From the IMG/VR virus record IMGVR_UViG_2778261246_000008: 23,044 nt of DNA, one strand, 5' to 3'. The position numbers were made by a program, and so were the translations under genes. Position 1 is the stretch's first letter, and every line of letters begins with the position of its first letter. The notes under the pieces are model-generated. The model was given only the letters and a program-made list of their open reading frames with translations, had not been told where the DNA came from and did not search any database. Shown piece by piece: positions 3,771-23,044 of the stretch. Origin of the DNA: a virus. Lineage: Duplodnaviria > Heunggongvirae > Uroviricota > Caudoviricetes.

Positions 3771-6593
3771 ATGACGGCAGAGTACATCAGGGACTGGCAA
3801 CAACCGCGCCACGCAGTGGGGCGTGAAGGAACGGGGATCCCCGCTCCTGAATCCGCGCTTTCCTCCTGGCTGGATGCCTACCGGGTAGAGAACGAGCGCC
3901 GCCAGGAAATGGCTGATGCGGCCTTCTCCGCCACGCCACTGGGCAACCTGATTAATAAAAGCCTGGACGCACAGGAAAAACAGGACAAAACCATCACACT
4001 GGCAGGAGACGCCAGAAAACAGGCACGCGGCGCGGTGGATGAAGCCATGGCCTCGCTGCGCCTGCTGCCGTCCTATCTGCGCGATCCGCTTATTCGCCAC
4101 CTCTCCTTCCTGCGCAAAAAACAGGAAGCCGATCGCCGGAAAGGCAAAAAGAGCTGGCAGGCGGAACGCTATGCACGCGGAACCCTGCGCAAAATATTCG
4201 AACGTCTGGATCGCACTGACGGACACTGGCTGACACCGGGTTATCGCTCCCTTGCCGGACGCGAACGCCTGGACGATTTGCTTTACCTGCCGCAGCTCAA
4301 CAAACACCAGATACAGACGCTGGCCACCATGACGGCGGCGATGTTCAGCAGCACCTTCGAAAAACTCTGCGATGGCTTTGGCGCGACCGATGGCGAACTG
4401 ACCATGGATGTAACGCTGAAGGCGTATCAGATGCTGGCCCGCATGGCGTTACACCTGCACATCATGCCTCCACATTATGACGCACTGACAACAGATAAAG
4501 ACCGGAGGAACGAACCGGACACGGAGCTGCTGCCGGGCGCAATCCTTCGCCTGACCTGTGCGGAATGGTGGAAACGCAAACTGTGGCTGTTACGTTGCGA
4601 GTGGAGAGAAGAACAACTCCGCGCCGCCTGTCTGGTTTCCAGAAAAACATCACCCTATCTGAGCCAGGACGCGTTAAGCGAGTTTCGCGCACAGCGCGAG
4701 AAAACACGCGATTTCCTGAAAAGTTTCATGCTGGAAAACGAAGACGGGTTCACGATTGATCTCGAGACAGTGTATTACGCGGGAGTAAGTAACCCGGTTC
4801 ACCGTAAGGCAGAAATGATGGCCACCATGAAGGGGCTGGAACTTCTGGCCGAAGCCCGTGGCGACAAAGCGGTGTTTCTGACTGTCACCTGCCCGTCAAA
4901 ATACCACGCCACAACAGAGAACGGTCATCCGAATCCCAAATGGAACGGGGCCACCATGCGCGACTCCAGCGATTACCTAGTTAACACGTTTTTTGCAGCG
5001 GTCCGCAAGAAACTGAACCGCGACGGCCTGCGCTGGTATGGCATCCGCACGGTGGAGCCTCACCATGACGGCACCGTGCACTGGCATATGATGGTCTTTG
5101 CTCATCCGGAAGAAATCGACACCATTGTGTCCCACACCCGCGATATTGCCATTCAGGAAGATCGTCACGAGCTGGGTGATGATATTACCCCACGCTTTAA
5201 GGCGGAGTACGTCGACGGCTCAAAAGGCACGCCAACCAGCTACATCGCCACCTACATCGGAAAGAACCTGGACAGCCGCGCCGTGGATGGCATCGACCCG
5301 AAAACGGGCAAGCCACGCGTTGACCACGAAACAGGTAAATCAATGGCCGAGAGCGTGGAGCGCGCCATCGGCTGGGCGCGCCTTCACCGGGTCCGCCAGT
5401 TCCAGTTCTTTGGCATCCCCTCCCGTCAGGTGTGGCGTGAACTCCGCCGCCTTGCCAGCCAGATGGCACGCAACCCGGAAGGCCCGCAACGGCTGAAGGA
5501 TGACGCAATGGATGCGGTACTCGCTGCCGCTGATGCCGGATGTTTTGCCACCTACATTGAAAAACAGGGTGGCGTACTTGTTCCGCGCAAGGACTACCTG
5601 ATTCGCACAGCCTACGACCTCGCAGATGAGCTGAACGATTACGGCGAACAGAGTGTACAGATTTACGGGATCTGGTCGCCATTCATCGGGGAATCCTCCC
5701 GTGTGTGCACGCATCCGGATAACTGGAAGCTGGTAAGACGTAAACCGGAAGCGGAAGACAGCGCCCGCGAAAATGGTTTTGACCTTCAGGGCGGCCCTGC
5801 CGCCCCTTGGACTCGTGGCAATAACTGTCCCCGTGTACAGGAAACGGACAACAACGGGACAGAACAGCCGGAAGAACGGCCAGCACCGTGGCCGCAGCTC
5901 CCTGATGGCGTTGAAGTGAACGAATGGATGCGCTCACTGAAACGACACGAACGCCGGGCGCTGATGCGTTCGCTTCGTGACAAACAGGCAAAAAACAGCA
6001 GCGATGAAATGCAGAGCTGGACACAGAGCCGCAAACAGCCACGGCCTTTGCCTGATAACCACGAATTACTCGCTAAAGAATGGCGGGAGTCTGCTGAATC
6101 TCTCGGCCTGCATATCGGTGAACAACAGATGCAGCACCTGTTACGGGGCGGCAGTCTGTACGTTGACGGCAGCATCATTGCACCGCAGGGATTTGAAATT
6201 GTACGCAAACCGGATACCCGCCCGGACAGCCGAATCACGCAGCTCTGGCAGCGCCTGAGCCGTAATCATGGCGTAAGCAGCACGGAGATCCGCCATAACC
6301 CGGTCGCCAGCTATCTGGCACAGCTGGGGGCATCAGACCCTGAAGCCGCCGCACGCCTGGCATCCACACTTCAGCAGGACCAGAACACCATGAAAACACC
6401 CGTTACCGTGCTTTCTGACATGCTGCGCGCCATCCGCGACGCAGAGCACGCACAGAGAATCAGTGAAACCACTGAACGCGCCAGCCGCAAAGCAGACCTG
6501 CTGCGGGGTGGCATGACCAGTGGAAACAAAAAACAGACAGAAACGGGATTCACAAATCCCATAAATGAGCAAAAAACGTGCCGCGATATATGA
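3771..6593 (+). CDS. A: Rolling-circle replication initiator / endonuclease, P2 gpA family
   Basis: 940-aa ORF with the HUH metal-binding motif (TVHWHMMVF) and the paired catalytic tyrosines (TSYIATYIGKN) typical of P2 A-type initiators. Position after the early small genes matches P2. Confidence 0.9.
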   Translation: MTAEYIRDWQQPRHAVGREGTGIPAPESALSSWLDAYRVENERRQEMADAAFSATPLGNLINKSLDAQEKQDKTITLAGDARKQARGAVDEAMASLRLLPSYLRDPLIRHLSFLRKKQEADRRKGKKSWQAERYARGTLRKIFERLDRTDGHWLTPGYRSLAGRERLDDLLYLPQLNKHQIQTLATMTAAMFSSTFEKLCDGFGATDGELTMDVTLKAYQMLARMALHLHIMPPHYDALTTDKDRRNEPDTELLPGAILRLTCAEWWKRKLWLLRCEWREEQLRAACLVSRKTSPYLSQDALSEFRAQREKTRDFLKSFMLENEDGFTIDLETVYYAGVSNPVHRKAEMMATMKGLELLAEARGDKAVFLTVTCPSKYHATTENGHPNPKWNGATMRDSSDYLVNTFFAAVRKKLNRDGLRWYGIRTVEPHHDGTVHWHMMVFAHPEEIDTIVSHTRDIAIQEDRHELGDDITPRFKAEYVDGSKGTPTSYIATYIGKNLDSRAVDGIDPKTGKPRVDHETGKSMAESVERAIGWARLHRVRQFQFFGIPSRQVWRELRRLASQMARNPEGPQRLKDDAMDAVLAAADAGCFATYIEKQGGVLVPRKDYLIRTAYDLADELNDYGEQSVQIYGIWSPFIGESSRVCTHPDNWKLVRRKPEAEDSARENGFDLQGGPAAPWTRGNNCPRVQETDNNGTEQPEERPAPWPQLPDGVEVNEWMRSLKRHERRALMRSLRDKQAKNSSDEMQSWTQSRKQPRPLPDNHELLAKEWRESAESLGLHIGEQQMQHLLRGGSLYVDGSIIAPQGFEIVRKPDTRPDSRITQLWQRLSRNHGVSSTEIRHNPVASYLAQLGASDPEAAARLASTLQQDQNTMKTPVTVLSDMLRAIRDAEHAQRISETTERASRKADLLRGGMTSGNKKQTETGFTNPINEQKTCRDI

Positions 6594-6669: not shown

Positions 6670-7629
6670 ATGAAAATTTGTATCGACGACGGCTCCACCA
6701 ACATCAAGCTGGCATGGACTGAGAACGGCGAACGCCGCAACGCCATCAGCCCGAACAGCTTCAAGTCGGAATGGTCTGCGCCGTTCGGTGGCTCGCAGCC
6801 CGCGAACTACATGCTTGATGGCGTGCGCTATGGTTTTGATCCGGTCAGCGATCGCTTTGTCCAGACGACCGACACGCAATACCAGTACAGCGATGTGAAT
6901 GTCATTGCCATTCATCACGCGCTGGTCAAATCAGGCATCACGCCACAGGAGGTGGATGTGGTTGTCACCCTGCCATTGAGCGAGTATTTCGACACAAACG
7001 CACAGCCGGACATGGCCAACATCAGCCGCAAAAAAGCGAACGTTATGCGCCCGGTGGAGTACCAGAACGGCGAAACATTCACTATCCGTAACGTACGGGT
7101 TATGCCTGAATCCATTCCGGCTGGCTTTAAGGCACTGGCTGACATGAGTCCGTTTGAATCCCTGCTGATTGTGGATTTGGGCGGAACCACTCTGGATGTG
7201 GCAAAGGTTCAGGGGCAACTGGCAGGTATCAGCCAGGTGTTTTGCGATCCACACGTAGGCGTTTCTCTGATGGCCGATGCCGTACTGTCGGTGATGGCCA
7301 CTAACGGTATGCGCACCAGTCACCACATCGCCAATACCATTATCGAACATCGCCATAATGAAGCCTGGCTGCGCCAGCACATCCACAATGACGCGCATTA
7401 CGCCAGCCTGATGGCGATTATTCGTGAAAAGGAAGAAACACTGAAACAACGCGTGATCCGCGCGCTGGCGGGTTTTTCGGGTTACGGGCGGGTGATGGTT
7501 GTCGGTGGCGGGGCGGAGATTGTGGCACCCGCTATCCGCGAAGCCTGCGGAGTTAATGCGACTTTCATCGCGGACGGGGTGCCACAGTTTGCTCTGGTTA
7601 ATGGGCTGTACGCAATGGACAAGGAGTAA
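6670..7629 (+). CDS. parM: Actin-like ATPase of the ParM/StbA family
   Basis: The N-terminus MKICIDDGSTNIKL, plus SPNSFK, YSDVNVIAIHHAL, VMPESIPAG, LLIVDLGGTTLD and VVGGGAE, line up with the phosphate-1, connect and adenosine motifs of plasmid R1 ParM as recalled. AAGGA Shine-Dalgarno upstream. Confidence 0.85.
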   Translation: MKICIDDGSTNIKLAWTENGERRNAISPNSFKSEWSAPFGGSQPANYMLDGVRYGFDPVSDRFVQTTDTQYQYSDVNVIAIHHALVKSGITPQEVDVVVTLPLSEYFDTNAQPDMANISRKKANVMRPVEYQNGETFTIRNVRVMPESIPAGFKALADMSPFESLLIVDLGGTTLDVAKVQGQLAGISQVFCDPHVGVSLMADAVLSVMATNGMRTSHHIANTIIEHRHNEAWLRQHIHNDAHYASLMAIIREKEETLKQRVIRALAGFSGYGRVMVVGGGAEIVAPAIREACGVNATFIADGVPQFALVNGLYAMDKE

Positions 7630-7633
7630 ACCA

Positions 7634-7945
7634 ATGACGACACCAACCAGACGGATAAGTTTCTATCTGAAGCCCGCCGCCGTCAAGAACGAAGGTGAAG
7701 CATGCGCCTGGCTGGACAGCCTTACACCAGAAGCGCGCAAAAGCGGCCAACGCGTGGCTTTTCTGGCCGGGCTGGCACTTCTGAAAATGAATCCGGCAGA
7801 GGCTTACCGACTGGCTGCATGGGCTGATGATGAAGCGTTATCAGTGACACAAACCAGGACAGAACGCCCCGCGTCACAGCCAGTATCAACCGCACAGATA
7901 ACCAGTCAGATGGCTGGAAATATCCGGGCGTTATTTCCCGAATAA
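7634..7945 (+). CDS. parR: ParR/StbB-like adaptor, probable ribbon-helix-helix DNA-binding protein
   Basis: Immediately downstream of parM with an AAGGAG Shine-Dalgarno. RISFYLKPAAV...AFLAGLALL...IRALFPE parallels the R1 ParR pattern from memory. Size (103 aa) and position fit the family. Confidence 0.6.
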   Translation: MTTPTRRISFYLKPAAVKNEGEACAWLDSLTPEARKSGQRVAFLAGLALLKMNPAEAYRLAAWADDEALSVTQTRTERPASQPVSTAQITSQMAGNIRALFPE

Positions 7946-8008
7946 CACAACATCAGTGCGCATCCGCCCTGATGACTTTAACCCGGGAACATAAACAAGG
8001 GGGACACA

Positions 8009-8344
8009 ATGCAACGCATTGACAGAGAAAAAGCGCAGCGACTGATTGAGCGGATGGAAGCGCTGGCGAAAGAAGAAAATGTCAACATCCAAAAAATAGC
8101 TGAATGTGGCCAGATAGTTCTTCGTCGTGAAAAAGACCTCAAACAACTGATGTCTGGCGAAACCAGCAAAACATGGACTTCAGGTGAGGAGACGATTTAT
8201 TGCAGCTTCTGCAATAAATCCCAGTACGAAGTCACAAAGGTGATTGCCGGACCGTCTGTTTACATCTGCAATGAGTGCGTTGATTTGTGCAATGAAGTTA
8301 TCAGGAGAGAAGTGACAGACCATGAAGAAAAAACGCATGAATGA
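8009..8344 (+). CDS. Stand-alone ClpX zinc-binding-domain-like protein (C4 zinc ribbon) with an unrelated N-terminal helical extension
   Basis: The C-terminal segment [40 protein letters not shown] is near-colinear with the N-terminal zinc-binding domain of bacterial ClpX (CSFC...CxxC), but there is no AAA+ module. AGGGGGA Shine-Dalgarno. Confidence 0.8.
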
Positions 8345-8510
8345 CGAATTTGACGGCTTTTAATTTTATCGGGGCGCACTGTCGCCCTGCATGGAGAAAA
8401 ACAATAAAAAAGATGAATAACTGCTCATGTCAGACGCGCTGCGGGCAAGTCTGGCACCCTGCCCTGTCTCCGCAAAGGCTGTTGTCTTAACACGACAGAG
8501 TATGCCAGCA

Positions 8511-8918
8511 TTAAATATAATCTTCTTCGTAGTCGCTGATTAATTCATTGCCATAATCAGACAGCAATTTCAAAGCAAAGGTAACTTCCTCAAGGGTAGC
8601 TATCCCCATTGCTGAAAACACCGTTAATTTAACCAGCAGCAGGGAGTTTGAAAGTTCGGAAGAGTTCATCATTAAAAATATTGATGCAGCCTGAAAAGCT
8701 GTGCGTTTATTCCCATCATGAAAGGCATGAGCCTTGGCTATACCAATCAAATACATAGCAGCCAGAGCATGAATATCATCAACCCCTTCATAGTAGTGTA
8801 GTGTCCTGACGCGATTTAAAGCACCTTCAAGTAGCCCGTCATTGGCATTTCCGCTCTGGGGTAAAGTTTCAGCATGGATACGTTCTACTTGTTCTTTTGA
8901 CAAAAACACTATGTCCAT
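8511..8918 (-). CDS. doc: Doc-family toxin (Fic/Doc fold)
   Basis: Contains the Fic/Doc motif HAFHDGNKRTA. Its start overlaps the stop of the upstream antitoxin gene as ATGA on the minus strand. AT-rich relative to the phage backbone. Confidence 0.85.
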   Translation of the reverse strand: MDIVFLSKEQVERIHAETLPQSGNANDGLLEGALNRVRTLHYYEGVDDIHALAAMYLIGIAKAHAFHDGNKRTAFQAASIFLMMNSSELSNSLLLVKLTVFSAMGIATLEEVTFALKLLSDYGNELISDYEEDYI

Positions 8919-9274
8919 CAGTTATCCTCAAGCTTTTTAATGATATCCGCATGTTTTTCTCTTGTACGCTTCATTGCATCTTCAAAAGACAATCCTTTTT
9001 TTCTCTGTGCGACAAGAGCTGGATGACGTTTTTCCAGATCTCTCACTGCATTTATTAAGAGTGGTTGCTTCATTTTGTTTATTTGATCCCGCAGTTTTTT
9101 GGTTTTGCCAAGGACAGCCCGTATTTCAGGACTAAGATCAGAACCAGCAAGAACAACATCCTTCCCTCCCTGCGCCGTGATAACGACACTGCCACCGGAA
9201 GAAAGGTAATCCAGAATTTCACTCAGGTTCTCACGAAATTCATCATCAGTTACAGTTTTCATATTCATTTCCAT
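8918..9274 (-). CDS. phd: Phd/YefM-family antitoxin
   Basis: Small acidic protein immediately upstream of doc and translationally coupled to it. The N-terminus (KTVTDDEFRENLSEILDYL) fits the Phd/YefM pattern. The true start may be one of the internal ATGs (MEMNMK). Confidence 0.7.
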   Translation of the reverse strand: MEMNMKTVTDDEFRENLSEILDYLSSGGSVVITAQGGKDVVLAGSDLSPEIRAVLGKTKKLRDQINKMKQPLLINAVRDLEKRHPALVAQRKKGLSFEDAMKRTREKHADIIKKLEDN

Positions 9275-18029: not shown

Positions 18030-18657
18030 GGCATTCACCCGCGTGGATGAAACCTTTGAGGCCATCCGCGACAGCCTGAATCAGCAGGCCATCAATAACA
18101 TCGCCAGAAAGCTGGCACAGGATTTACGCCGCGCCCAGCAGGCGCGTATCCGGTCACAGAAAGCGCCGGACGGGACCGCGTGGACACCACGCAGACGCCG
18201 CGTAACCCGGATACAGGAACGCATTCGCTTTATCTGGAATAACGAAGCACGCACGCTGAAAAACTGGCATCACGACACGGGGAAATACGGGCGAACCATT
18301 ACCGGGTGGGATGAGGATAAAAACAATATCCGCACGTTTTACCGGGATGACATCGACCGTTTTCTGGAAATACGCACCCGGCGCATCAACCAGGACAGCA
18401 CAAAGCGCGTCCCCATGTTCGTAAAACTGCGCACCGCCCGCTACCTGAAAGCCCGTGCAGATGCATCCGGTGTGACGGTGGGTTACAGCGGCGTGGCCGC
18501 ACGTATTGCACGCGTTCATCAGTTAGGTGAGCGCGATCAGGTTGCGCCGGGCATTTTCACCGATTACCCGGTACGTGAGCTGCTGGGTATCAGCCAGGCA
18601 GATGAGCGCCTGATTTATAACACGGTGCTGGGCCGGATTGCGGAGGCTGTACGGTGA
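18013..18657 (+). CDS. S: Tail completion / virion morphogenesis protein (P2 gpS family)
   Basis: ORF following R and overlapping its 3' end. The start is ambiguous between GTG 18013 and ATG 18022. Confidence 0.78.
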   Translation: MKAMDKAFTRVDETFEAIRDSLNQQAINNIARKLAQDLRRAQQARIRSQKAPDGTAWTPRRRRVTRIQERIRFIWNNEARTLKNWHHDTGKYGRTITGWDEDKNNIRTFYRDDIDRFLEIRTRRINQDSTKRVPMFVKLRTARYLKARADASGVTVGYSGVAARIARVHQLGERDQVAPGIFTDYPVRELLGISQADERLIYNTVLGRIAEAVR

Positions 18658-19235
18658 GCGCAGAACTCATGCGACTGCTGAGCAACATCATCCGTACCGG
18701 GATCATCTCTGAAGTTGATGAGGAATCCTGGTGCGTGCGCGTTCGCAGCGGCGAACTGGAAACAGGCTGGCTGCGCTGGAACACCACGCGCGCGGGAGCC
18801 TTCAATGTGTGGCTGCCGCCATCACCCGGCGAACAGGTGGTAATTGCCTGCATTGGCGGCAACCCGGAAACCGCCATGATAATTGGCAGCCTGTGGAGTG
18901 ATGCCATTCCGGCCCCCGGCAAAAGCCTGAAAGAAATCGTGGTCAGCGCGCCGGATGGCACGGTGTTCCGCTACGACGCGGACGCAGGCGCACTGAGCGC
19001 CAGCGGCATGAAAACAGCCACCCTGCAGGCATCCGTCAGCGTGACACTGGATACGCCCGTCGTGGAATGCACAGACCTTCTGAGAACGGCGACGCTTGAC
19101 GTCACAAAAGGGGGAAAGATGAGCGGCAATATCACGCACAGCGGCGGCAATTTCACCTCAAACGGCATCACAGTGCATACGCATAAACACGGTGGCGTTA
19201 AAGGTGGCAGCGATTCGACAGGAGGCCCGCAGTGA
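18654..19235 (+). CDS. V: Baseplate spike/hub protein (P2 gpV family)
   Basis: GTG start with a GGAGG Shine-Dalgarno; 193-aa Gly/Ser/Thr-rich C-terminus; order S-V-W-J-I-H. Confidence 0.82.
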   Translation: MSAELMRLLSNIIRTGIISEVDEESWCVRVRSGELETGWLRWNTTRAGAFNVWLPPSPGEQVVIACIGGNPETAMIIGSLWSDAIPAPGKSLKEIVVSAPDGTVFRYDADAGALSASGMKTATLQASVSVTLDTPVVECTDLLRTATLDVTKGGKMSGNITHSGGNFTSNGITVHTHKHGGVKGGSDSTGGPQ

Positions 19236-19582
19236 CAACCCGCTACACAGGAATGAACCCGGACGGAACGGGAAACCTGAACGATATGGAGCACCTGAAA
19301 CAGTCAGTCAGGGACATCCTGACCACCCCGCTGGCAAGCCGGGTTATGCGACGGGAATATGGCAGCCTTGTGCCTGATTTGATTGACGAACCCATGAATA
19401 ACACCACGCGTCTGCAATGCATGAGTGCTGCCGTGATTGCGCTGACACGATGGGAACCCCGCATTGCCCTGGACGCTATCGACGTTGTCTGGAAGGCAGG
19501 AGGCCGCGCCGGGGTGACGCTGTCGGGCACTGTCATGCAGACCATGCAGAATGTTGAATTAACCATCACGCTGAGGGAGTAA
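19232..19582 (+). CDS. W: Baseplate wedge protein (P2 gpW / T4 gp25-like)
   Basis: 116-aa ORF; GTG start with a GGAGG Shine-Dalgarno, overlapping the V stop. Confidence 0.82.
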   Translation: MTTRYTGMNPDGTGNLNDMEHLKQSVRDILTTPLASRVMRREYGSLVPDLIDEPMNNTTRLQCMSAAVIALTRWEPRIALDAIDVVWKAGGRAGVTLSGTVMQTMQNVELTITLRE

Positions 19583-19585
19583 ATC

Positions 19586-20482
19586 ATGCCTGCCGTTGAC
19601 CTTTCACAGTTACCGGACCCCGCCATCATCGCGGAGCCTGACTTTGAGGCAATTCTGGCTGACACAAAGGCCATGATGATTGCGTCCTATCCCGCCGAAC
19701 AGCGTGAAGCCGTTTCCGCCGCGCTGGAGCTGGAATCGGAACCCCTTAACGTTATCGCTCAAACCATGTCGTTTCGTGAAATGCTGTTACGCCAGCGGGT
19801 CAATGAGGGTGCACGCGCCTGCATGCTAAGCCACAGCGCCGGGACAGACCTGGACAACCTCGCGGGCAATATGAACACAAAGCGCCTGGTTATCACTCCG
19901 GCAACGGATACCACCGACGCAGTGATGGAAAGTGACACCTCGCTGAGACTACGGGCGCAACGGGCATATGACGGTCTGAGTGTTGCTGGCCCGTCAGGTG
20001 CATACGAGTATTTTGCACGCAGCGCCAGCGGTCTGGTACGCGATGCGCGGGCCATCAGCCCGTCTCCGGCCAACGTGACGGTTTCCATCCTGTCCACTGA
20101 GGGCGACGGCACAGCAACGGAGGCGTTGCTTAATACCGTTCGCGCCGTTCTGAATGCAGAGGATACCCGCCCGGTGGCCGACCGCCTGACCGTACAGAGT
20201 GCCAGAATCGTGACATGGCGGCTGAATGCAAAACTGTACTTTTACCCCGGCCCGGAATCCGAACCTATTCTGGCCGCGGCGGAATCGTCGTTCAGGAAGT
20301 GGCTGTCTGAGCAGGGGCTTATCGGTCAGGATGTGGCGTTGTCAGCCATTGCTGCCGCACTGCATGTGCACGGTGTGCAACGCGTGGAGATAATCGAACC
20401 CACACAAAATATGGCCATCAGCGACATACAGGCGGCGCGCTGTGAGTCATTCACCATCAGCGAAGGTGGGCGTAATGAGTAA
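19586..20482 (+). CDS. J: Baseplate assembly protein (P2 gpJ family)
   Basis: 298-aa ORF with a GGGAG Shine-Dalgarno; position and size match P2 J. Confidence 0.88.
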   Translation: MPAVDLSQLPDPAIIAEPDFEAILADTKAMMIASYPAEQREAVSAALELESEPLNVIAQTMSFREMLLRQRVNEGARACMLSHSAGTDLDNLAGNMNTKRLVITPATDTTDAVMESDTSLRLRAQRAYDGLSVAGPSGAYEYFARSASGLVRDARAISPSPANVTVSILSTEGDGTATEALLNTVRAVLNAEDTRPVADRLTVQSARIVTWRLNAKLYFYPGPESEPILAAAESSFRKWLSEQGLIGQDVALSAIAAALHVHGVQRVEIIEPTQNMAISDIQAARCESFTISEGGRNE

Positions 20483-21005
20483 TTCACTGTTACCGCCATC
20501 AGCCAGCAATTTCATGCGTTGTGCCGAAGCTGTCGGAACGCGCATTACAGACATTCCGGTAGACCTCAACACGCTGTGGTCGCCGGACACCTGCCCGGTG
20601 CATCTGCTGCCTTATCTCGCCTGGGCATTTTCCGTTGACCGCTGGGATCGCAACTGGCCGGAAGAGACAAAGCGACAGGTGATTCGTGATGCATGGCTGA
20701 TACACCGACACAAAGGGACCATCAGCGCACTGCGCCGGGCCATTGAGCCGCTGGGATACCTCATTCGTGTGTCTGAGTGGTGGGAGTTCGGCGGAGAACC
20801 GGGAACATTTACCGTTGAAGTCGGCACGCTGGACAGTGGCGTGACGGAGGAAATGTATCTGGAAATGGAGCGGTTGATTGCTGATGCCCGCCCGGTCAGC
20901 CGCCACATGACAGGGCTGAATATCATTCAGGAGATCCCGGGGGATATTTTCGCGGCGGCAGCAACTTACGACGGTGAAGTCATTACCATTTATCCGGACG
21001 ATTAA
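20475..21005 (+). CDS. I: Baseplate/tail protein (P2 gpI family)
   Basis: Internal ATG at 20475 (MSNSLLPPSASNF...) gives 176 aa, the size I recall for P2 I; it overlaps the J stop by 8 nt. Confidence 0.82.
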   Translation: MSNSLLPPSASNFMRCAEAVGTRITDIPVDLNTLWSPDTCPVHLLPYLAWAFSVDRWDRNWPEETKRQVIRDAWLIHRHKGTISALRRAIEPLGYLIRVSEWWEFGGEPGTFTVEVGTLDSGVTEEMYLEMERLIADARPVSRHMTGLNIIQEIPGDIFAAAATYDGEVITIYPDD

Positions 21006-21007
21006 GC

Positions 21008-23044
21008 ATGAGTACCACAACACGAAAATTTAAAACCGTTATCACCGATACGGGTGCCAAAAAATTAGCTCAGGCAGCCGCGCCAGATGGTAATCCTGTC
21101 CGCCTGACTCACATGGCCGTGGGCGACGGTGGCGGCACGTTGCCCACACCAGACAGTAAGCAGACCCGTCTGGTGCATGAGGTGTGGCGACATACTGTTA
21201 ATCGCGTCATCCTGGACGCAACACATCAGAACCGCATTATTGCGGAGCTGGTTATTCCTCCTGAAACGGGCGGATTCTGGATCCGGGAAATTGGTGTATT
21301 TGATGAGCACGGCGATTTAATCGCGGTGGGCAATACTGCCGAAAGTTACAAGCCAGCCGTTGCCGAAGGATCCGGACGTGCACAAACATTTCGCACCATT
21401 CTGACCGTATCCAGCACTGCCACCGTGGCGCTTACCGTGGATAACACCATGGTTATGGCCACAGTGGATTACGTGAATGACAAACTGAAAGAACATGAAC
21501 AGTCACGACGTCACCCGGACGCCTCGCTGACCGCAAAAGGCTTTGTTCAACTCAGTAGCGCCACCAACAGCACGTCTGAAGCACTGGCCGCAACGCCGAA
21601 AGCGGTCAAGGCAGCCTATGACCTTGCTAACGGGAAATATACCGCACAGGACGCCACCACAGCGCGAAAAGGTCTTGTCCAGCTCAGTAGCGCCACCAAC
21701 AGTGATTCTGAAACGCTTGCGGCAACGCCAAAGGCGGTAAAGGCAGCATATGACCTCGCTAACGGGAAATATACCGCACAGGATGCCACCACAGCGCGAA
21801 AAGGTCTTGTCCAGCTCAGTAGCGCCACAAACAGCGATTCTGAAACGCTTGCGGCAACGCCAAAGGCGGTAAAGGCCGCGTATGACCTTGCTAACGGGAA
21901 ATACACTGCACAGGATGCCACTACAGCGCGAAAAGGTCTTGTCCAGCTCAGTAGCGCCACCAACAGTGATTCTGAAACGCTGGCCGCAACATCAAAAGCG
22001 GTGAAGTCTGCCTATGACAATGCTGAAAAACGTCTTCAGAAAGATCAGAACGGTGCGGATATTCCGGGAAAGGATACCTTCACGAAAAATATCGGTGCCT
22101 GTCGTGCTTATAGCGGCGCTTTGAGCACTGAAGCCGGAAACTGGACAACCGCTCAGTTTATTGAATGGCTGGATTCCCGTGGTGCATTTAATCATCCGTA
22201 CTGGATGTGCAAAGGCTCATGGTCATATGCAAATAACAAAATCATTACGGATACCGGATGTGGTGATATCCACCTGGCTGGTTGTGTCGTCGAGGTCATG
22301 GGAACTAAATCTGCAATCACTATCCGAGTGACCACGCCGACAACATCAAGTGGTGGCGGTACAACCAGCGCGCAATTCACTTACATTAATCATGGGGACG
22401 GCTACTCCCCCGGCTGGCGTCGTGACTGGAATCGTCAGGGCGACTCAATGACCGGAACGATTAATCAGGATGGCGGAAGCCAGAATGCCTATATGTCTAC
22501 GGCCTTATGTTCAGGCACCAGAGGCGGCAAAAAATATCTCAGAAAGTTTCGTGGTGGAGAAGGAGACACTATCTGGCATGAAACAGTACAGGGCGGGGTA
22601 ATTCGCTGGGCGACAGGAAACTATGACGCTCAGGAAGAATTATCACTCAGCTCCGCTTATGGTCTCCGTTCAAGAGGTGAGATTACATCACTCAGTGCTA
22701 ATGGTCTGCGCATTGCTTATGGCAATTATGGATTCTTTATCAGGAATGATGGCGGCAGCACATATTTAATGCTGACGGCCTCTGGCGATAAATTTGGGAC
22801 ATGGAACGGCTTAAGACCGCTGACTATCAATAACGCCAATGGCGGAGTGTCAATGGGGCATGGCCTGAGTGTTACAGGTGATATTGTCTGTTCTTGCCCC
22901 CTTATTTCCAGACAGGGGTTGTATCTTAAGTTAACATTACCCGCTGACGTCGATATTCTCGCGGAGAGCGATAACCCAACGCACTATGCGGATGGTTTTC
23001 ATTGTAATGCTCGATCGCCACTGCAAGGTTATGCAATGCCGTTC
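21008..23044 (+). CDS. H: Tail fibre protein (P2 gpH family), 3' end beyond the window
   Basis: Hand translation from ATG 21008 is open through to the window end (679 codons). The N-terminus [21 protein letters not shown]...MAVGDGGG...HEVWRH...[17 protein letters not shown] is the conserved P2 H virion-attachment domain. Absent from the ORF track because no stop falls inside the window. Confidence 0.88.
21536..22030 (+). repeat. Tandem array of ~3.7 copies of a 132-bp (44-aa) unit inside H
   Basis: The unit [44 protein letters not shown] starts at 21536, 21668, 21800 and 21932 (period exactly 132 bp), with synonymous and near-synonymous differences between copies. It also produces the repeat-containing antisense ORF 21616..21963. 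Confidence 0.85.

Follow-up and report, generated by a model that had tools for sequence, protein, structure and literature searches.

The window analysed here, a stretch of 23,044 nucleotides, is a P2/P88-like (Peduoviridae) prophage of E. coli. Its positions 1-22889 are 99.9% identical to the prophage of the pig isolate HCP5S3_I2, and the window is 98.8-98.9% identical to the prophages of the cattle isolates C7 and C3. The open reading frame of the tail-fibre gene H begins with the ATG at 21008, continues to the window end, and contains a tandem repeat array in the same frame. The baseplate genes V, W, J and I are located upstream, as open reading frames at 18654-21005, and an intact relative, a 99.9% identical prophage, is annotated with V, W/gp25, J, I, a tail fiber protein and a tail fiber assembly protein. 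The P2 late-operon synteny V-W-J-I-H and G is therefore present, G itself lying beyond the insertion sequence and the window end. The features of the window are collected in the table.

Table. Coordinates of the features discussed in the text, numbered from the first nucleotide of the window
Feature	Position	Strand	Evidence or remark
ParM/StbA actin-like segregation protein	6670-7629		
Plasmid_stab_B protein	within 7499-7945		
ClpX-type zinc-finger protein	8009-8344		
Doc/Fic toxin and Phd antitoxin	8511-9274	-	
Tail-fibre gene H, codons 1-627 of a 775-codon allele	21008-22889	+	Translation; matches to intact alleles
N-terminal tail-collar fibre domain PF12571, aa 6-153	21023-21466	+	Pfam E 7.7e-54
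Repeat unit 1	21536-21667	+	Holds the L033 breakpoint (last difference 21574); C3 deletion junction spans 21617-21639 in this unit
Repeat unit 2	21668-21799	+	Missing from the 2-unit C3 allele
Repeat unit 3	21800-21931	+	Peptide identical to that of unit 2; C3 deletion junction spans 21881-21903 in this unit
Repeat unit 4, terminal hybrid	21932-22063	+	Conserved core, then Mu S-like sequence
Distal fibre part: Mu S' (G-minus)-like aa 337-490, then gp34-type trimerisation domain PF21446, aa 544-607	22064-22889	+	PDB 8ju3, E 1.7e-87; PDB 5yvq; Pfam
End of the IS3-family element ISEc48 (3' end of the transposase gene), interrupting H	22890-23044	-	Antisense to H

The H protein starts with a PF12571 collar domain, the putative baseplate attachment part, and this N-terminal region is closest to that of P88-like Xuanwuvirus phages. 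The PF03406 repeats follow directly after the collar domain, and the segment located after the Mu S'-like part resembles Mu S (PDB 5yvq). H shares the PF12571 domain and the gene order of P2 gpH-type fibres, but its reading frame is not intact, and its distal part is not homologous to that of P2 H, matching instead Mu S'/S and the trimerisation domain of T4 gp34, with a C-terminal identity to P2-type alleles of ~7% ungapped. The protein is a mosaic, as is usual for gpH-type fibres.

From 22890 onwards, the window matches ISEc48 copies of ~1,900 E. coli genomes at 99-100%, and it ends inside this element. The similarity of H to every intact allele ends at 22889, with divergence from 22890: the matches to the tail fiber protein genes of C7 and HCP5S3_I2 (99.8-99.9%) both end at query position 1882, the equivalent of 22889 in the window. 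Since the homology to intact alleles stops there and ISEc48 follows, H, which comprises 2328 nt and 775 codons when intact, is cut after codon 627. Because of this truncation, the fibre encoded in the window's genome is probably non-functional, and its array would not be expressed in a working fibre. The ISEc48 insertion in H was absent from the complete E. coli genomes that carry the same prophage.

Within H, Tandem Repeats Finder delineated a 132-bp array at 21535-22018 (period 132, 3.7 copies, 89% matches, 0% indels, score 737), the rest of the 23-kb window holding no array with a score above 42. A second, independent repeat search reproduced the 132-nt spacing. The original prediction of a ~3.7-copy, 132-bp array inside the tail-fibre gene H is thus borne out by the repeat search, by the PF03406 and PF12571 matches and by the gene context. 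Of the limits it gave, 21536 and 22030, the start is exact, while the end falls a few bases beyond the point, at ~22018-22024, where DNA similarity among the units ceases. Positions 21536-22063 correspond to three full units and one partial unit, in frame with H. Between units 2 and 3, 8 of the 132 nucleotides differ, each change being synonymous, and the 44-residue unit quoted beforehand is exactly the one that both encode. The accompanying description of the copies as separated by few nucleotide differences holds for this pair, but not for unit 1, which is 14-16% different (18 differences from unit 2, 21 from unit 3). Unit 4 is similar to units 2 and 3 over its first ~90 nt and divergent after.

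The four units correspond to four stretches of a PF03406 (Phage_fiber_2) match of 261.4 bits (E 2e-79), which is well past chance; the best stretch, aa 173-213, aligns with positions 1-41 of the 42-position profile. With a score above the Pfam gathering score of 22 bits and a phage tail fibre as the host protein, the repeats belong to this family. Other candidate readings of the same sequence were discarded. A minus-strand open reading frame at 21616-21963 (115 aa), wholly contained in the array and itself repetitive, is a by-product of the repeat and not a gene. A resemblance to TPR proteins (Pfam TPR_20, 21.4 bits, below the 25-bit cut-off) and weak matches to designed TPR proteins in the PDB, devoid of significant stretches, reflect the composition of an Ala-rich periodic sequence.

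Copy number was compared across related phages. Among cultured Peduoviridae, it ranges from 1 to 4, with one unit in L-413C H, two in P2 H and 186 K, three in fiAA91-ss, P88 and P88_4B11, and four in vB_YpM_46. We then surveyed 80 IMG/VR loci whose N-terminal domain is related to that of H; the identity is 95-99% in 70 loci and 59-64% in the other 10. Nine loci carry one unit, 24 two, 31 three and 12 four, while five and eight units were each found in one locus and seven in two, some of these calls resting on draft assemblies, in which 132-bp repeats are open to mis-assembly. Loci with a nearly unchanging N-terminal domain thus carry anywhere between 1 and 8 units, and the number also varies within almost every distal-domain class. 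The spacing between units is 44 residues in 78 of the 80 loci, the other two having some 56-residue spacings. The possibility that copy number is invariant among relatives is thus set aside. The best protein-database matches to H carry 3-6 units. A cross-genus contig scan returned distant genera only (51-62% identity), without close E. coli relatives, and was therefore used solely to define a one-copy baseline: 58 of 63 complete genes from Xenorhabdus, Photorhabdus, Pectobacterium and other genera have a single unit. The statement that P2 H has fewer copies proved right, and the array can be called expanded relative to P2 and to these other genera. Among close relatives, with their range of 1-8 and their mode of three, four units are mid-range.

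At a larger scale, the unit is carried by 1,454 of 1.84 billion representative proteins, with up to 12 units in 700-850-aa fibre proteins of other types, in which 44- and 56-residue versions alternate. In three of the distant loci, from Xenorhabdus and Pectobacterium (L093, L099 and L119), the one Phage_fiber_2 unit is followed by a tandem NANGRVPxxRKVNGKALSADIxL... motif, and other repeat types seem to take the shaft role in such single-unit relatives.

One and the same allele exists with 2, 3, 4, 7 and 8 units. C7 (four units) and C3 (two units) each differ from the window at 1 of 528 positions in the 5' flank and at 0 of 826 in the 3' flank. The corresponding differences are 6/528 and 4/826 for CH468 (three units) and 6/528 and 5/826 for the contig L003 (eight units); in L004 (seven units), the contig end cuts the allele. 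Strains C3 and C7 carry the prophage at one and the same place in the chromosome and share 99.85% identity over 47 kb, and the two loci are identical over 4.6 kb save for a 264-bp indel. Unit 1 of C3 is chimeric: its first 19 informative sites are those of window unit 1 and its last 4 those of unit 3, with 0 mismatches. In a minimal-crossover reconstruction, one in-register jump, without any mismatch, turns the array of the window or C7 into the whole C3 array. Between C3 and C7, the shared prefix and suffix overlap by 23 nt, which define the exchange site. This junction reads as a direct footprint of contraction, for which homologous recombination and slippage would look alike from the product. 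Likewise, CH468 is L003 with one crossover from unit 3 to unit 8 and 1 mismatch, and L004 is L003 minus one of three identical units. Single in-register crossovers thus account for C3 from C7 or the window, and for CH468 and L004 from L003, in agreement with the proposal that such arrays gain and lose units by slippage or homologous recombination. The full-frame variant alleles, of 687, 731, 775 and 951 aa, all stay in frame; since the unit is a multiple of 3 nt, whole units are lost or gained without a frame break. For the same reason, the locus does not qualify as a phase-variable contingency locus of the simple-sequence-repeat type.

We propose that the 132-bp units, which are 84-94% identical, misalign in register, and that such misalignment during homologous recombination or replication would delete or duplicate whole units in frame. 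Each unit would lengthen the trimeric fibre by one segment in its proximal part, and the number of units may thereby set the length or reach of the proximal shaft. In parallel, the conserved core of the unit would double as a homology patch by which varied distal receptor-binding cassettes are joined to a conserved proximal part. We therefore hold it highly probable that the array consists of four tandem PF03406 44-residue repeats, placed between the baseplate-attachment and the receptor-binding parts of the fibre, and polymorphic through in-register misalignment.

The array also coincides with module junctions. Over 3 kb upstream and in the 5' region of H, the window and the IMG/VR locus L033 are 3.4% divergent, with 21574, in unit 1, as the last differing position; from 21575 to 22889, they show 0 differences over 1,315 nt. 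This switch within unit 1 is a recombination breakpoint that joined a different phage backbone to the same distal cassette. With other prophages, homology to the window ends at 22017/22018, and each of the eleven distal classes is joined inside the terminal unit, right behind the AATPKAVK core. The L033 breakpoint, the 22017/22018 edge and the AATPKAVK junctions together indicate that the conserved core has a second role as a homology patch in the exchange of receptor-binding cassettes. This cassette-exchange reading agrees with what is reportedly the classical view of tail-fibre mosaicism, said to go back to Haggård-Ljungquist in 1992 and to Sandmeier in 1994.

As an alternative, copy number itself may be neutral, the core acting mainly as a homology patch for distal cassette exchange and the gain or loss of units being a by-product of unequal alignment. 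The sharp breakpoint with L033, the end of homology at the array edge and the use of the terminal unit as the joining place of every distal class all speak in its favour, as do the concentration of differences between L085 and the window in the array, and the mosaic boundary of L-413C H at aa 207, within the first unit (PMC7460101). Against it, the C3/C7 event altered unit number alone, with no exchange of the flanks, and the unit proteins are under strong purifying selection. Calculated over 72 unique units, terminal ones left aside, pS amounts to 0.44 and pN to 0.059 (pN/pS 0.13), and for window units 2 and 3 pS is 0.24 and pN 0, which identifies the units as protein modules subject to such selection. 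Because this selection acts at the protein level, the units are more than DNA homology patches. We thus regard neutrality of copy number as a real possibility, though one that falls short of an even chance. It is also compatible with the main explanation, that of shaft repeats polymorphic through in-register misalignment.

In another reading, the array could be a high-frequency, in-frame length-variation locus, each lysogen or lysate always containing a mixture of fibre lengths, with 1 to 8 or more units. If true, this would provide bet-hedging for P2-like phages, allowing them to reach receptors under O-antigen or capsule of varied thickness, in addition to a cassette swap point. The C3/C7 pair is compatible with a high rate of variation but gives no rate, and we consider such a locus improbable.

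Assembly has also to be taken into account, since differences in copy number could stem from repeats collapsed or expanded in short-read assemblies, with a true number that is fixed. Many database homologues are labelled partial, so the survey leans on draft assemblies; the IMG/VR loci come from draft genomes, and the collapse of a repeat would likewise yield a chimeric unit. By contrast, individually finished phage genomes differ from each other (P2 and 186 with 2 units, L-413C with 1, P88 with 3, vB_YpM_46 with 4), and a single allele is represented with 2, 3 and 4 units in three entries of the complete-genome collection. In addition, the units are resolvable in assembly because they differ by 6-16% at the DNA level, and a misjoined C3 array would require an assembly-graph path across just 23 identical nt. 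A purely artefactual origin of the variation is therefore very unlikely. Still, as most close database homologues are labelled partial, care is advised when fibre length is read or annotated from draft assemblies of such genes.

Finally, the identical peptides of units 2 and 3, and the three DNA-identical units of L003, which indicate a fresh amplification elsewhere, might suggest that the array is a fresh slippage product, amplified recently and locally in this prophage, a reading already contradicted, and to which we give hardly any credence, by the synonymous divergence (0.24 between units 2 and 3, 0.41-0.50 between either and unit 1) that marks the window units as old paralogues, by the identical 4-unit arrangement in unrelated hosts (pig, cow, IMG isolates) and by the C3 comparison, which indicates contraction from 4 to 2 and not expansion.

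The repeats have counterparts in known fibres. P2 gpH and 186 gpK occupy the same position in the V-W-J-I-H-G order and share with window H the PF12571 domain and the PF03406 units, which start at residue 174-177; they differ by having two units instead of the four of the window allele, and the distal part of the window fibre is not P2 H-like, being composed of Mu S'-like sequence and a gp34-type trimerisation domain. Another counterpart is the fibre of the Yersinia phage vB_YpM_46 (Peduovirus YPM46), which has four units and the distal domain type of window H. It is colinear with H nt 229-1879 at 92% identity, the first 228 nt being different, and its gene is intact in a cultured phage, whereas window H is truncated.

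In phage Mu, the S/S' fibre (gp49; PDB 5yvq, 8ju3, 9ki1) carries one PF03406 unit (residues 117-159), after which comes ...NANARLAKDRNGADIP, just like in the window's terminal unit, and the variable part of Mu S' is similar to window aa 337-490. Mu S has a different N-terminal baseplate domain and a single unit, as opposed to PF12571 and four units in window H. Moreover, Mu switches its distal parts by Gin-mediated inversion, while the intact relatives of the window prophage have no invertase beside H-G. An invertible segment of the Mu G, P1 C or p15B Min type was searched for next to H-G in these intact relatives, and neither an invertase nor an inverted second cassette was found; tail genes of the opposite strand come immediately after H and G. 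We observed that window 22019-22480 is highly similar to the variable region of Mu S' (G-minus; PDB 8ju3), and that the segment at ~22080-22112, which lines up with the gix crossover site of Mu, is only a degenerate remnant of it. At the equivalent place, the annotation of 186 K marks a "Mu-like inversion crossover site".

Lambda Stf and the collagen-like EPclB of EHEC prophages contain Pf2 domains, of the same Pfam family as the window units. These proteins are side fibres of siphoviruses or podoviruses and, unlike window H, contain PfN, collagen and coiled-coil segments. Pf2 recurs in side tail fibres, where the adjoining repetitive segments vary by whole repeat units, and little is known of its structure or function (PMC3368898). 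The Phage_fiber_2 family has likewise been described as being without known structure or function (PMC8078820). By PDB sequence and profile searches, the only solved chains that contain the unit are the Mu S entries, and the Mu cryo-EM paper makes no statement on the modelling of residues 117-159. An AlphaFold2 monomer of aa 150-420, built on a 19-sequence alignment, was all-helical with a pLDDT of 45.5 and a pTM of 0.25, and was set aside as unsuitable for a trimeric fibre.

The repeat family was already known, as were its occurrence in P2-type fibres and the mosaicism of these genes, and the exact allele is in RefSeq as "tail fiber protein". No specific report on copy-number variation of the PF03406 repeat in P2-like fibres was found in the literature. 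What is added here is a clean in-register loss of units, from 4 to 2 at a 23-nt junction, between near-identical prophages, and the range of 1-8 units. As natural fusion points and putative length-tuning modules, the repeats could be useful for the engineering of P2-like fibres or tailocins.

Elsewhere in the window, a variable cargo region at 6670-9274, between the replication gene A (3771-6593) and the portal gene, contains the ParM/StbA and Plasmid_stab_B genes, the zinc-finger gene and the toxin-antitoxin genes of the table. A plasmid-type partition pair is an unusual cargo for an integrase-bearing P2-like prophage. Outside the window, C7 (L169, 42950-46398) and C3 (L170, 42684-46132) carry genes for a SIR2-family protein and an ATP-binding protein between D and ogr, a known P2 cargo hotspot, and this pair is likely an anti-phage defence pair.
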